Part shown: piece by piece, positions 12,201-16,400 of the stretch
Layout of the letters: each line of letters starts with the position of its first letter
Numbering within the stretch: the stretch's first letter is position 1
Origin: Escherichia coli
GTDB taxonomy: Bacteria > Pseudomonadota > Gammaproteobacteria > Enterobacterales > Enterobacteriaceae
Assembly (NCBI RefSeq): GCF_003991155.1
Contig: NZ_CP031294.1
Length of the DNA stretch: 64,000 nt
Reading direction: 5' to 3' (one strand)
Position numbers and translations under genes: made by a program
The notes under the pieces: model-generated
The model's input: only the letters and a program-made list of their open reading frames with translations
Told to the model about the DNA's origin: nothing
Database searches by the model: none

Positions 12201-12780
12201 CCCGGACGTTAATCTGGTCGTAGAATGGGGTAGGGTGCGGATAAACCACACTATAGAAGTTGTTTTTTCCACCCGCTGTAATCAGTGAGCTTATGATTTT
12301 TGCAAAATCGTTGCGTTGGTACACGCTACCGATGTCGGCAGTGAGCAGGATGATGTTGCCTTTGGCATATGTAGAAACCAACTGTTCGAGCGAGAGACGC
12401 GGTACAAAGTAGAACTGTTCTCGTGTGTTGGCCGCCGTCATTAGTTCGCAGATGTCTCGATATCCCTGCTCATTTTTAATTAGAGCGGTAAAGGAGTAGT
12501 TCCGCCCACGCTCTAATGATTCCATACATCCCATAGACTCTTTAGCAAGTTTAGCCCGGTGCTCGTATGTGGGATCATCAACAATGTTTAGTTTCACACC
12601 ACAAATAACCGCCATGTCGTCACCAGCGGCACGTTGTAGTGGAATAACACTCGCAATATTCATGCTATCTGCCGAAATTACAGCGGTGTAGCCAGCTTCT
12701 CTGGCAATCTTCACCGCGTTTTCTGCTTTTAGAGCCGACTCCCCAAGAGAGAAGTCAGTTCGAACCATCAGAGCCTTCAT
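9262..12780 (-). CDS. dnaE: DNA polymerase III alpha subunit (DnaE-type)
   Basis: 1172 aa. N-terminal PHP-like region, then polymerase core segments such as GRGSSAGSLVAWCIGIT, LDVLGL and FNKSHSVAYS. Confidence 0.93.
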   Translation of the reverse strand: MKALMVRTDFSLGESALKAENAVKIAREAGYTAVISADSMNIASVIPLQRAAGDDMAVICGVKLNIVDDPTYEHRAKLAKESMGCMESLERGRNYSFTALIKNEQGYRDICELMTAANTREQFYFVPRLSLEQLVSTYAKGNIILLTADIGSVYQRNDFAKIISSLITAGGKNNFYSVVYPHPTPFYDQINVRAMKVASALKIEPVAFYPAYYESIDDADIKDIAHMVTNNIKIDQPHRLRIPHQRDNAVNGRRHLLEALKAFSVRMDVPVTAAMASTTQDTIIDACTWRWHELPPALPKMADDEPATLMKLAVAGLRKRLTTKEFGYTPPASENRVYVERLKYEMDTLTRLGFCGYFLMVRDLMNHSRETGIPVGPGRGSSAGSLVAWCIGITNVDPIRHGLLFERFINPERLDLPDADLDFSQARRHEVIEYLNERYGEDYVAGIPNFTYLGAASALRDTARIYGVESADMAVSKELKNVEDDSLPLEELREQLASLDKYATKYPDAFNAACKLQSLMRGYGRHAAGMIVAGVPLTERTPVERRGDARCIAFDKRYCEAMGLIKLDVLGLATLDLLDSAKRYIKENTGEDINLDAISLEDRKVLDGFAAGYTQGVFQLESGPMRKLLKDLGGGIEPMSFKTVVATTALFRPGPIQSGMLDDYVSVAKGFMTPESLHPVLDELTAETNGVILYQEQTMNATRLLAGFTMAEADGVRKAIGKKDMEKMKSMGEKFIVQAQAGWIDVELEDGTTQRIHRAEHFKCEDGTLKTVEEALEFGAKLPINAVRVTASHPGLSEMKAKEIWTAFEKNGAYQFNKSHSVAYSLISYQSMWLKTHYPAEFFAAALTILGEDKHQGLVKDALTYGIRVLPPDVNVSSNRIEIRTLEDGSQVLYAPFSAVKGCSENGCQAIMRAREKVGGKFESLAQFEEAVEKRACNSRVRESLQKVGAFASIEPGSLPATDPERLRDQAELMGNLVIDAVKASRPFEMNPKRSAEINVLMTRMAAEMGLGDELIRPSIGIKPKIMIILDNANGNDARTGYFMENGYDDFKAKLLTAGDLRMGDLYVTGVCKKVKDKEKDYTKDEIGQFTDFMREEINLVRPTYVLTCGSRATSLFNNKIKPSDLVGRKEYLPELDVTVFYGFNPNILYFRPEEGEKLEAILAEVAETISK

Positions 12781-12958
12781 GTGTTTTTACCTTTCTGGTT
12801 TTTTTGATTTTGTCATTGGGGAAGCCTACGAACTTCCCATACATCGAAATCGCAACTTCTTTTGCTGATTGGTGACAATCGGGCTTGTCTGGACACACCA
12901 GACAAGCCTTGCCAGTTTCAGAAGCAGCGATAAGAGAGCCGAAACATCCTTTACGCAC
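12755..12958 (-). CDS. small Cys-rich protein (67 aa)
   Basis: CFGS...CLVCPDKPDC pattern. Overlaps the dnaE start by 26 nt. Lies directly after the AAA+ gene. Confidence 0.4.
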   Translation of the reverse strand: MRKGCFGSLIAASETGKACLVCPDKPDCHQSAKEVAISMYGKFVGFPNDKIKKTRKVKTHEGSDGSN

Positions 12959-12960
12959 GA

Positions 12961-14196: not shown

Positions 14197-14291
14197 GCGT
14201 TTTTCCTTTGTTTTCTAATGAGCTTTCAACTTCTTATATAAATATACCATCAAATATCGTAAGTGATTACTTATCATTAAGGCTGTTCTAA

Positions 14292-16400
14292 TCACTTCAA
14301 AATGATACGAGATAGTTCAGTAACTACAGATGAACCAAGACTATCAACGCTCGTTACCAGGGCATGGTTTGCGTAAAATCTCTCCGGTGCGTCAGTCATG
14401 ATGCCAATTGCCATCAAATCAATGTCAGTCTGCGTTTCAATTTGCTTCGCAACCGAACGCAAATGAGCGTCAAAACCTCTCCCAACAGCCCACGGCGCGC
14501 CATCGCTTAGAACAAGCATGATCTTCTTGTCCTCCATGCGACCAGAAAATAACGATGCAAGGCTGGCTATGCTTTCACCATCCACGTTATTAAGAAGTGG
14601 GAATGTGTAGCCTACGCACCCCATACGTGAGCGAACTTCGCGAGAATTGGCCTTTTCATTCCAATTTTTGATGATAGGTAGCATTAAAGATTCAAAGCGA
14701 GAGAACTCATACTTGATTGCCTTAAGCTCTCCTGCTGCCATATGACTACCAAATGTAGTGAAGCCGGTGATAATGTTGGGAACATTTATTCGATCAAGGG
14801 CATCGGCGATGGTATATGCACTTGCAAGAGCCAATTGTATCGTTATACCACTCATTGAACCTGATAAATCAATCACTTGTTGAACACAGGCGTTAACGGC
14901 TTTAGATTCTTCTTTTTTACGAAACACGCGATCATCATTCATTGCTAATCTGTAGATACTAGAACCATGAATGCGCCCCCGACGCTGGCCCGGTATAAAC
15001 TGAACTCTGTTTCTGCTTGCTATTGCTCGCTCCAGGTCTTTTGCCAGCGTCGACGAAACACCTGACGAAAGATGCTTTTCAATATATTTGTCGAAGAGCT
15101 GGTTGCCTTCAGGAACGATGCGATAGCGGCTGATTGGATATCCTCCTAAATCAATATCGGAGAATGTTTTAATAAGCCGTTTGATATGGGCTTCTGCCTG
15201 ATCAATCGAGCCGATGAAGTCGTATGAGCGATTGTATGGCCTGTATTCGCTTTTCGAGCTTTCTGTTAACTCGCTTTTAATCGTTTCGGATAGAGCATCT
15301 TCTGTCATACCTCCGACTTCATCTTCTATGCTATCCAGCTCCTCTAAAGCCTCTTCCAGACTCATTTTTGACGGAGTTGGAATATCTGAAGAGCCGTCTT
15401 CTGTCGTTTTTCTTTTTTCGTGGTCAGCGGTTAATGATTCTGACGCCGCGTTATCAGAAGCATCAGAATCTGATACCTCTTTATCATTTTCTGTATCATC
15501 GAATATTGTTTCTGATGATTCAGAATTATCTGAATCATCACTGTCGTTATTATCATGTTTGTGCTTACTGTGTGGTTCTGATTTGATAGATTTGTGATTA
15601 TCTAACATTGAGGGTGTCTCATGATCTTCGTTATCTTCATTGTTTTCTCTAGAGGCATCCGTCTGGTCAGCGTCTGAAGGATCGGAAGTTTTTCCCGGAG
15701 CTGACTCCTTACCTTTGCTTTCACTTTCAGTGTCTTTGAGGATCTTAGCTATGGTCGCAGCCACCTTTACACAATCATCGGTGCAAGACATGTTACGCAC
15801 GGCCACATCGATACCATGTTCTTTTAATAATGAAATTGGTTTCTCAATGACAGGCCAATATTCATCCATGAAATCTACGAACGGTGCTTGGCCATCCCAG
15901 GCTCTTACAACCGGACAGAGAAAGAAGTTTAGAAAAAGCGCACGCTGATCTTTGCCACAATAAGCAATAGCCTCTGAAGCCTTTGGTTTAAAGACTTTTT
16001 CGATTATAAGGCGCTGAGTTGCCATCAGATTACGTCTTGTTCCGTTAAAGACCTGACCCATTTTTCGCTCGATGAACACGTCTTCTAAGGCATTCCATAG
16101 CGACCAGGAAGGAACGCGTCCTTTTTCTCTCATTTTGTTGGACACACGAATATCGGTAAACAAAATGTGAGCAACCTCATGATCGAGAAATCCGCGCACA
16201 GCATTCATCAATGCCGGTGTTGCGTTATCCGGGATTGATGGGATGTTTACGAGAATTGGCTCTCCATCATCGTTATAGCGTACATAAGCGTCGTCCCCTC
16301 GTTCTGCAACAGGGATGTTTTTACCTGAAAGGAGAGCGACTACTCGTTTTACACTGTCACGGAAGTCCTGAACCTCTTTGATGGAACGTTTTTTAGACAT
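14292..16400 (-). CDS. cobT: VWA-domain protein, usually annotated CobT-like, with an N-terminal HExxH motif and an acidic disordered linker
   Basis: MIDAS-like DLSGSMSG in the C-terminal domain. HEVAH near the N-terminus. About 170 aa of Asp/Ser/Glu low complexity (nt about 15218-15728). Confidence 0.8.
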   Translation of the reverse strand: MSKKRSIKEVQDFRDSVKRVVALLSGKNIPVAERGDDAYVRYNDDGEPILVNIPSIPDNATPALMNAVRGFLDHEVAHILFTDIRVSNKMREKGRVPSWSLWNALEDVFIERKMGQVFNGTRRNLMATQRLIIEKVFKPKASEAIAYCGKDQRALFLNFFLCPVVRAWDGQAPFVDFMDEYWPVIEKPISLLKEHGIDVAVRNMSCTDDCVKVAATIAKILKDTESESKGKESAPGKTSDPSDADQTDASRENNEDNEDHETPSMLDNHKSIKSEPHSKHKHDNNDSDDSDNSESSETIFDDTENDKEVSDSDASDNAASESLTADHEKRKTTEDGSSDIPTPSKMSLEEALEELDSIEDEVGGMTEDALSETIKSELTESSKSEYRPYNRSYDFIGSIDQAEAHIKRLIKTFSDIDLGGYPISRYRIVPEGNQLFDKYIEKHLSSGVSSTLAKDLERAIASRNRVQFIPGQRRGRIHGSSIYRLAMNDDRVFRKKEESKAVNACVQQVIDLSGSMSGITIQLALASAYTIADALDRINVPNIITGFTTFGSHMAAGELKAIKYEFSRFESLMLPIIKNWNEKANSREVRSRMGCVGYTFPLLNNVDGESIASLASLFSGRMEDKKIMLVLSDGAPWAVGRGFDAHLRSVAKQIETQTDIDLMAIGIMTDAPERFYANHALVTSVDSLGSSVVTELSRIILK

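Follow-up and report, generated by a model that had tools for sequence, protein, structure and literature searches.

A CobS/CobT-like gene pair of an SSU5-like phage-plasmid, with an intact HExxH motif and replication-gene neighbors, is unlikely to act as a cobaltochelatase

INTRODUCTION

The window analyzed here, a stretch of 64,000 nucleotides, is the opening 64 kb of an SSU5-like Escherichia coli phage-plasmid (contig NZ_CP031294.1), and the subject of this work is a pair of adjacent minus-strand genes within it, one encoding a CobS-like ATPase and the other a CobT-like protein. Their closest described counterparts are CobS and CobT, the partners of CobN in the cobaltochelatase CobNST (EC 6.6.1.2). 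In Brucella, the N-terminal domain of CobT resembles an M48C peptidase (one helix, a three-stranded sheet, and eight helices) and is connected by a disordered linker of ∼90 residues to a C-terminal von Willebrand factor A (VWA) domain with a MIDAS (metal ion-dependent adhesion site). A “shaft” that precedes the VWA domain is inserted in the CobS ring, the two domains of CobT bind CobN between them, and helix a10 of CobS forms a hydrophobic dock for the N-terminal domain of CobT, CobT_N (bioRxiv 10.64898/2026.07.21.739949). The Brucella melitensis proteins (PDB 9ujv/9uka series) and the phage pair are alike in the AAA_5 motifs of the ATPase and in the M48-like N-domain, acidic linker, shaft, and VWA-MIDAS domain of its partner. 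The phage pair differs in possessing an HExxH motif and a zinc-finger extension of CobS, in a linker about twice as long as that of Brucella CobT, and in having no CobS_N match, no helix a10, and no annotated CobN.

Viral versions of the pair have already been described. According to Liu et al. (2021), cobST occurs in tailed viruses infecting eight orders of hosts, and cyanophage cobT is mostly annotated as a peptidase (PMC8651126), and Iyer et al. (2021) described a MoxR-vWA pair in T4-like jumbo phages, in which an N-terminal metallopeptidase is fused to the vWA protein (PMC7824862). The pair in the window is a further member of that family. It forms the same unit as the MoxR-like ATPase and metallopeptidase-vWA pair of cyanophages, group 2.2 jumbo phages, and haloarchaeal and other tailed viruses, with the same domain order, HExxH motif, and replication neighbors; however, the relation in sequence is only distant, CobS being 25 to 31% identical, and the peptidase of cyanophage P-SSM7 has no Pfam CobT match at E values up to 0.1. 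The SSU5-type group adds a Cys-rich open reading frame (ORF), the zinc finger of CobS, and tight linkage to dnaE, whereas the CobS of the cyanophage type ends in an acidic C-terminal tail. In viromics, the cobS and cobT genes of phages are tallied as B12 “auxiliary metabolic genes” as a matter of routine, and in ecological papers, phage cobS figures as a gene for B12 whose function is uncertain. Both belong to the core genes of marine myocyanophages, where the behavior of cobS is that of a single-copy core gene rather than of an environment-dependent metabolic gene (PMC9983427).

Several cellular systems share parts of this design. NorQ/NorD, CbbQ/CbbO, RavA/ViaA, and CoxD/CoxE each combine an AAA_5-type hexamer with a VWA-MIDAS adaptor and remodel a specific client, but VWA partners of the NorD/CbbO/ViaA/CoxE type lack a peptidase domain and serve enzymes of respiration or carbon fixation as clients rather than phage functions. 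Compared with the M48 peptidases (Ste24/ZMPSTE24, HtpX, BepA, and Oma1), the phage N-domain contains no membrane segments, is fused through the acidic linker to a VWA domain, and shares ∼8 to 12% identity. Wss1/SPRTN acting with Cdc48/p97 provides an analogy and a lead, not homology, and the AAA+ clades involved differ from that of phage CobS. New in the present analysis are the contrast between the phage HExxH and genuine CobT, the missing dock helix of CobS, the consistency of the replication context, and the four-gene array of the SSU5-type elements.

RESULTS

The cobT-like gene (positions 14292 to 16400, minus strand) encodes a protein of 702 amino acids (aa) that consists of a zincin N-domain, an acidic linker, a shaft segment, and a VWA-MIDAS domain. 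Both Pfam families of CobT are matched above their gathering thresholds (CobT, PF06213, 5e-27, 95.5 bits with a cut-off of 26.1; CobT_C, PF11775, 2e-83, 279.6 bits with a cut-off of 21), the order being N-domain, linker, and VWA, and the protein matches PHROG 1576 at 1e-298. In a single-sequence search of the PDB, the VWA part of Brucella CobT was matched at 2e-16; with a profile of viral relatives, Brucella CobT (9uka_G) was recovered at 7e-63 and NorD at 1e-4. The features listed in an original prediction, which had been made from the sequence of the window alone (Walker motifs, a Cys/His cluster, HEVAH, the MIDAS, the linker, and a 67-aa ORF), were all found where it had placed them.

The N-terminal domain (aa 1 to 225; 15726 to 16400, minus strand) carries HEVAH at aa 74 to 78 (16167 to 16181), a putative zinc-binding and catalytic motif. 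Downstream, the sequence NALEDVFIE includes E106-D107...E111 (16068 to 16085), a candidate third zinc ligand and helix; by analogy with gluzincins, these residues would serve as zinc ligands. In the model of the domain, one helix and a three-stranded sheet are followed by helices, among them those spanning residues 62 to 81, with the HExxH, and 96 to 117. The domain thus combines an HExxH on a helix with a downstream Glu, both conserved, as in gluzincins of the M48-like type, and its fold is that of a zincin; the absence of a peptidase-like fold had been named in the original prediction as grounds for abandoning it. Among 128 aligned sequences, the motif reads G-F-x-D-H-E-x-[AG]-H, with G70, D73, and H74 invariant and with E75 and H78 each kept in 127; E106, E111, and G120 are likewise invariant, and N103, D107 (127/128), and N124 are nearly so. 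Since the catalytic Glu is conserved in addition to both His residues, catalysis is favored over mere metal binding.

Direct searches place the domain less readily. Searched singly against PDB sequences, it produced only chance matches to HLA chains, and none of the Pfam peptidase models is matched by the CobT-like protein. The profile search of the PDB aligned the domain only from position 89 on, so that the HExxH helix lies outside the alignment, and Foldseek returned no PDB match for it from a fold library in which the CobT structures are apparently not yet included. The N-domain recurs, by fold match in BFVD, in VWA proteins from siphoviruses, podoviruses, myoviruses, haloarchaeal viruses, and actinophages.

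To gauge the conservation of the motif, 1.84 billion cluster representatives were searched with the N-domain, yielding 1122 matches, and the 127 full-length proteins among the best 150 were surveyed. HExxH is kept by 126 of these relatives, which are 33 to 74% identical to the query. Shuffling the whole protein yields an HExxH by chance in 2.2% of cases, and shuffling the N-domain does so in 0.16%. The motif is also present in all 17 of the more distant viral loci, a count that is not independent because the patterns used to retrieve them include HExxH. Individual examples are the “peptidase” of cyanophage P-SSM7 (HEVGH), the protein of Ralstonia jumbo phage RsoM2USA (HEVGH), and CobT of Vibrio phage ICP2 (HECYH).

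Genuine CobT is different at exactly this site. Full-length genuine CobT was not among the matches listed in a search with a Brucella CobT fragment, all of them truncated entries, and the N termini were therefore obtained by translating two frameshifted genomic loci, one Brucella-like and one from Methylorubrum. The Brucella-type sequence recovered is the right one because its numbering reproduces the contacts P24, F25, A28, R34, I72, R76, and D80 of the structural preprint. In both proteins, D-S-M-A-L-R is aligned with the phage-type D-H-E-V-A-H: both His residues and the catalytic Glu are gone (S-M-x-x-R), and the equivalents of E106 and E111 remain. The intact HExxH, which genuine CobT lacks, is the discriminating evidence, and the comparison suggests an origin of CobT in a peptidase-VWA protein that was active. 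The frameshift of cobT lies in or near the region encoding the acidic linker in both assemblies, which shortens the protein calls, and the best 120 CobT matches listed are all shortened in the same way. On these two chromosomes, cobS-cobT adjoins bolA and a gene for a DnaJ-domain protein, and no cob gene was seen among the called neighbors.

The linker (aa 225 to 395, 171 aa; 15216 to 15728, minus strand) is acidic, rich in Asp, Glu, and Ser (51 D/E, 31 S, and 17 K/R), and predicted to be disordered; a search for a tandem DNA repeat in the stretch encoding it found none. Diverse relatives possess a linker of similar character, with a median length of 174 aa and 38% D/E. A second DxSxS at aa 291 was considered as a MIDAS and dismissed as a chance match within the low-complexity linker. 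Defense-system models gave no significant match, and a weak match to DrmE (E value of 0.0014), which covers the low-complexity region, was likewise discarded. Beyond the linker, a segment equivalent to the shaft (aa 466 to 505; 14886 to 15005, minus strand) is aligned with residues ∼373 to 413 of Brucella CobT; the viral relatives share G475 without exception and G471, L482, D489, and F493 almost without exception (≥90%). The VWA domain, taken as the span of the CobT_C match (aa 492 to 701; 14298 to 14927, minus strand), contains the MIDAS D511-x-S513-x-S515 (DLSGSMSG from aa 511; 14856 to 14870, minus strand), completed by T548/T549 and D633 in the motifs GFTT (aa 546) and LSDG (aa 631). D511, S513, and S515 are invariant, and T548, T549, and D633 are nearly invariant (≥90%).

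The cobS-like gene (12961 to 14196, minus strand) encodes a 411-aa ATPase that matches Pfam AAA_5 (1e-15, 58.4 bits with a cut-off of 22) and no other Pfam family, as well as PHROG 249 (2e-105). Its nearest solved relatives are Brucella CobS (9ujv; 1e-25), midasin (2e-12), CbbQ (4e-6), and NorQ (1e-3). The ATPase site appears complete, with Walker A GHAGTGKS at aa 175 (13651 to 13674), Walker B LADEYD at aa 239 (13465 to 13482), and arginines for the arginine finger (∼aa 312) and sensor 2 (∼aa 367) conserved relative to Brucella CobS; score, Walker motifs, arginine finger, and sensor 2 all agree with membership in the AAA_5 family. The original prediction had read the pair as a MoxR AAA+/VWA-MIDAS module. 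The domain reading stands, but the ATPase is not a MoxR protein proper: AAA_5 is the sole Pfam match, the nearest NCBIfam models are CobS and GvpN, and the protein is best classed as an AAA_5, CobS-like ATPase that is MoxR-like only in the broad sense.

Both ends of the ATPase set it apart from genuine CobS. Its N-terminal extension (aa 1 to 140; 13777 to 14196, minus strand) holds a zinc-finger-like C18-x2-C21-x9-H31-x5-C37 (aa 18 to 37; 14086 to 14145), and a C2H2 or C2HC finger is present at this end in ∼24 of 38 related DnaE-type loci. No such finger was found in the cyanophage, ICP2, and genuine CobS sequences compared, and a Pfam scan of the extension returned no match. Pfam CobS_N, which cellular CobS proteins do match, is not matched by the CobS-like protein at E values up to 0.01. 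At the other end, where the match extends to the C terminus, nearly all DnaE-type loci encode a protein that stops at ...QRIFG plus no more than three residues and therefore lacks helix a10, the dock for CobT_N in Brucella. The missing helix fits an N-domain that would be free to act on a client. Brucella CobS has the hydrophobic a10 helix where SSU5-type CobS ends flush at ...QRIFG; CobS proteins outside the DnaE group, in eight loci from cyanophage-like viral contigs, have acidic tails ∼22 to 25 residues longer than that of the window, e.g., ...DENSDSDYNDQDEYI.

A cobaltochelatase role for the pair is unlikely because no cob gene is annotated, the ribonucleotide reductase is of the NrdAB type, and both proteins fall far below the equivalog cut-offs. 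Cobalamin genes, cobN included, are annotated neither in pEC17CM6_2, the identical plasmid, over its first 40 kb nor anywhere in the 98%-identical phage Cyrano, leaving the pair without an annotated CobN partner, and the ribonucleotide reductase of Cyrano is the B12-independent NrdAB. The CobS-like protein scores 86.1 bits against the NCBIfam equivalog TIGR01650 (cut-off of 558.55), and the CobT-like protein, of which aa 295 to 697 alone align, scores 69 bits against TIGR01651 (cut-off of 759.05); both scores are roughly one-tenth of what is required. From these scores and the Pfam and PDB matches, we judge the homology to CobS and CobT to be real but distant. The arrangement expected of CobNST, an N-domain without HExxH docked on a10 of CobS, is also missing, with DHEVAH in place of DSMALR and no a10. 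To our knowledge, CobN is absent from E. coli, Salmonella, Klebsiella, Yersinia, and Vibrio cholerae, and we know of no de novo corrin pathway in E. coli. Salmonella uses the CbiK route, and B12 engineering in E. coli reportedly required imported cobN, cobS, and cobT.

The original prediction had noted that no other cobalamin genes were present and had called the usual cobaltochelatase annotation implausible, and on both points the results bear it out. Other features that it had pointed out do not count against a chelatase: genuine Brucella CobT also has a VWA-MIDAS domain, a long acidic linker, and a peptidase-like fold, which are therefore traits of the family. The linker in particular was rejected as evidence for this reason. 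Nor is the annotation uniformly as described, because flat cobalamin names do occur in phage records, but RefSeq calls the two proteins “AAA family ATPase” and “cobaltochelatase CobT-related protein.” The pair of Cyrano (locus L001, 20207 to 23646), for example, is annotated as “cobalamin synthetase” and “dimethylbenzimidazole phosphoribosyltransferase,” the outcome of a clash of names with the CobS and CobT enzymes of Salmonella, which are unrelated to the Pseudomonas-type CobS and CobT. The same clash is repeated in the text of a roseophage paper.

The genomic context of the pair points to DNA replication. In the window, cobT, cobS, a 67-aa ORF (orf67), and dnaE form an array on the minus strand that ends at a hairpin (9104 to 9126), surrounded by a block of genes for RepA, a RecA/UvsX-like recombinase, an exonuclease, a gp32-like single-stranded DNA-binding protein, UvsY, ligase, primase, and helicase. 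SSU5, the Nickievirus phiK7B1, and Rhizobium phage RHph_N1_10 likewise group ligase with cobT, cobS, the Cys-rich ORF, and dnaE, at protein identities of ∼35%. Colinearity of cobT, cobS, and dnaE extends to 38 loci, of which 18 are viral contigs and 20 are species-representative genomes, and the N-domain identity among them falls to ∼30%; the species-representative loci lie mostly on 96- to 118-kb contigs of alpha-, beta-, and gammaproteobacteria. More broadly, cobS and cobT are adjacent in most of 52 viral loci, and the pair in the window agrees with the described viral unit, in which the gene for an AAA_5 ATPase adjoins one for a protein that begins with an HExxH domain and ends with a VWA domain. 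The pair of cyanophage P-SSM7 adjoins the sliding clamp and clamp loader genes (gp45, gp44, and gp62), and that of the Vibrio podovirus ICP2 adjoins those for primase, helicase, and a family A polymerase (PolA). A Pfam census of 142 neighbor genes from 13 divergent non-DnaE viral loci was led by the clamp loader, clamp, SbcC-like, RegA, DnaB-like helicase, and RNase H/5′-3′ exonuclease families, and no capsid, portal, terminase, or tail family was among the 25 families listed. Considered together, the DnaE-type, P-SSM7, ICP2, and census contexts indicate that the pair travels with replication genes whatever the type of polymerase.

Two loci deserve separate mention. In P-SSM7, a pyrimidine-dimer DNA glycosylase labeled “DNA binding protein” (Pyr_excise, 7e-18; locus L088, 5184 to 5693) is located between the gene for the CobT-like “peptidase” and cobS. 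In Xanthomonas phage JGB6, a fragment 49% identical to CobS aa 165 to 370 is annotated as “DNA polymerase III subunit alpha” (locus L083, 8007 to 8651), which would imply a CobS-DnaE fusion; the replication genes of this genome are split into many short coding sequences, and the fusion was set aside because the label is probably a sequencing or annotation artifact.

The third gene of the array, the 67-aa Cys-rich ORF (12755 to 12958, minus strand; GCFG-x13-C-x2-C-x5-C), appears to be translationally coupled to cobS, as had been predicted: its GTG start lies 2 nt past the cobS stop, and it overlaps the start of dnaE by 26 nt. PGAP, the NCBI annotation pipeline, left it unannotated in the identical RefSeq plasmid. 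We nonetheless regard the ORF as a real gene under purifying selection; 74 of 80 related loci retain it with all four Cys invariant, and synonymous codon differences exceed nonsynonymous ones. It matches PHROG 6337 (4e-47) and, weakly, PHROG 3616, and is homologous to the N-terminal Cys4 module of the 176- to 180-aa PHROG 3616 proteins that occupy the slot between cobS and dnaE in phiK7B1 and RHph_N1_10. The C-terminal two-thirds of the PHROG 3616-type protein has been lost in the SSU5-type lineage. The last gene of the array, dnaE (9262 to 12780, minus strand; 1172 aa), matches Pfam PHP, DNA_pol3_alpha, finger, and HHH_6. Past HHH_6, DnaE has a C-terminal extension (aa ∼1054 to 1125) with subthreshold likeness to the UDG superfamily (Pfam UDG, E value of 0.022), and the DnaE proteins of phiK7B1 and the Rhizobium phage have similar C-terminal tails.

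Immediately 3′ of dnaE, the hairpin at 9104 to 9126, found by a consensus scan, is terminator-like in both directions and is the likely end of the transcription unit; promoter and terminator scans of the region returned no more sites than expected by chance. Identical AACAAAGGA ribosome-binding contexts precede cobS and cobT (14197 to 14291 and 16401 to 16426). The spacer between cobT and cobS is 95 nt long and very AT rich and, therefore, could hold an internal promoter or regulatory site. Upstream on the strand of the array, a 70-aa ORF (16499 to 16711, minus strand; PHROG 2627), a hypothetical protein in RefSeq and in Cyrano, is of uncertain membership in the unit. A divergent gene for a helix-turn-helix regulator follows (16963 to 17349, plus strand), and then a tyrosine recombinase gene (17344 to 18447, minus strand). 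Farther out, up to 21808, a YafO-family toxin and a glutaredoxin are encoded, together with tRNAs for Ser, Thr, Tyr, and Asn (four genes; 21251 to 21808). SSU5 has only tRNA-Asn at that place, which marks a variable island beside the conserved array.

The element itself can be identified from its relatives. At unchanged coordinates, the E. coli plasmid pEC17CM6_2 (NZ_CP190020.1; 110,667 bp) matches the studied region with 100% identity; Escherichia phages PhiR41_1 and Cyrano match it at 98 to 99% and Salmonella phage SSU5 at ∼75%, which makes the element an SSU5-like phage-plasmid. Of 5426 complete E. coli genomes, 243 (∼4.5%) contain the region, every copy being plasmid borne, and plasmids of Enterobacter, Yersinia, Salmonella, and Citrobacter carry it as well. 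A single-sequence scan of viral contigs with CobS found only SSU5-like loci, 77 to 100% identical, and an alignment-based scan was needed to capture the wider diversity. The strict motif GF[LI]DHE[VI][AG]H is limited to 29 relatives among 185,579 species genomes. These are mostly on contigs of 96 to 118 kb in Yersinia, Kluyvera, Xenorhabdus, Morganella, Massilia, Roseospira, Paracoccus, Magnetospirillum, Phyllobacterium, and others, and rare chromosomal copies are found in Desulfosarcina and Lichenihabitans. The contigs of this size that carry the strict motif suggest that SSU5-type phage-plasmids are spread across alpha-, beta-, and gammaproteobacteria.

DISCUSSION

We lean modestly toward the view that the pair is a CobN-independent, ATP-driven machine, in which a VWA adaptor joined to a zincin domain acts on a protein client during the early or replicative phase of expression. 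By homology with the Brucella structures, six CobS-like AAA_5 subunits would assemble as a ring that grips the shaft preceding the VWA domain of the CobT-like protein, and ATP binding and hydrolysis would move that domain. The MIDAS would hold an acidic residue of the client, and the M48-like zincin domain, which presumably binds zinc, would reach the client on its flexible acidic linker of ∼170 aa, bind it, and probably cleave it. Read together with orf67 and dnaE, the pair would belong to an early, replication-phase set, and from this position of the genes, the client would most likely be a replication-phase protein of either the phage or the host. The original prediction had suggested a chaperone, remodeling, or protease-type function in replication or host takeover, which gene context makes a candidate role.

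Several observations weigh against such a machine. The pseudomonad phage phiK7B1 has SEISK at the position of HExxH and yet retains the gene pair and its synteny, so that proteolysis must be dispensable in at least one lineage. The survey of the best 150 of 1122 matches is biased toward keepers of the motif because the HExxH helix itself adds to the search score. The synteny of the DnaE-type loci may reflect ancestry, given that phage replication modules are inherited as blocks, and nearness to replication genes may simply amount to early expression. CobN is present in some hosts of related elements (Rhizobium, Paracoccus, and cyanobacteria), which leaves room for a chelatase-assisting role there. 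Finally, no functional test of a phage or phage-plasmid cobS or cobT was found in the literature.

The protein-processing machine can be specified further, at the price of a lower probability. As a replisome-associated, ATP-driven metalloprotease, it would capture through its MIDAS a protein at the replicating phage DNA, e.g., a crosslinked protein, a roadblock, or a subunit of the replisome in need of maturation; the ring would extract this protein and the zincin would cut it, making the pair a bacterial-virus counterpart of Wss1/SPRTN-Cdc48. The zinc finger and Cys-rich ORF of the SSU5-type elements would couple the machine to DnaE or to DNA, and genuine CobT would be a derived, dead protease recruited to B12 synthesis. 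We offer this version as a speculation that is unlikely to be correct in full.

Among the alternatives, the one that survives best, though also unlikely, is that the pair is a metal-center maturation chaperone comparable to NorQ/NorD, CoxD/E, CbbQ/O, and the chelatases. Such a chaperone would open or remodel a particular metalloenzyme so that its metal site is loaded or repaired, HExxH being a site that holds the metal and not a protease; phage NrdB, the PHP domain of DnaE, and a host enzyme are candidate clients. The nearest characterized relatives (CobS, CbbQ, NorQ, and NorD) do serve metal insertion or enzyme activation, the element and most pair-bearing phages encode metalloenzymes of DNA metabolism, and the loss of HExxH is tolerated in phiK7B1. 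However, the near-invariant catalytic Glu (127/128) would not be needed for metal binding alone, and no client is common to the phage types examined, which use DnaE, a family B polymerase (cyanophages), or PolA (ICP2).

Two further explanations seem to us doubtful, and about equally so. In the first, the pair is a host-takeover or counterdefense device that captures a host protein, e.g., a defense or nucleoid protein, and destroys or inactivates it early, the position in the replication module being a matter of timing only. The pair is indeed among the early and middle genes, a protease with an ATP-driven adaptor suits targeted protein removal, and the fold resembles the CapP, IrrE, and ArdC-type zincins of conflict and stress switches. 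On the other side stand the lack of a significant match to defense models and the invariant motifs and single-copy core-gene behavior across cyanobacteria, enterobacteria, vibrios, and haloarchaeal viruses (the last by fold match of the N-domain); motifs conserved across such different hosts probably imply a phage-internal client and not a fast-evolving host target. In the second, which extends the proposal made for T4-like jumbo phages (Iyer et al. 2021) by analogy with the MoxR-vWA proteins of the Acidianus two-tailed virus, the pair is a virion-assembly chaperone and processing protease that matures capsid or tail proteins. A matching architecture was described in phages with that proposal (PMC7824862), and the ATPase, VWA, and zincin sites are intact. 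The objections are contextual: the pair lies at least ∼17 kb from structural genes, the closest tail gene of the window being ∼21 kb away; in Cyrano, the structural module spans 135 to 26536 and the pair 43137 to 46576, colinear with dnaE; and its neighbors in three unrelated phage types are replication genes, with capsid, portal, terminase, and tail families missing from the 25 most frequent.

The least probable alternative is a true cobaltochelatase motor, in which phage CobS and CobT borrow a host CobN or CobN-like subunit and raise cobalamin synthesis during infection, as proposed by Liu et al. (2021; PMC8651126): it can appeal to significant homology with CobS and CobT, to the identical three-part architecture of CobT with its shaft and MIDAS, and to the aerobic-route B12 made by some hosts of related elements, but besides the gene content of element and hosts and the low equivalog scores, it is opposed by a near-invariant HExxH, absent from genuine CobT, that has no role in the model and by a CobS without the docking helix for CobT_N.

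That the pair may be something other than a chelatase will not surprise a specialist in AAA+ and VWA proteins; still, it is a concrete correction of a very common annotation. A simple sequence test separates the two types, with HExxH...E and no a10 in CobS marking the viral type and S-M-x-x-R marking a true chelatase subunit. If the pair is a protein-processing machine, many ecological inferences on B12 drawn from viromes would need revision, and a widespread function of the phage replication phase would become testable in a tractable E. coli/Salmonella system (SSU5 and pEC17CM6_2-like plasmids).

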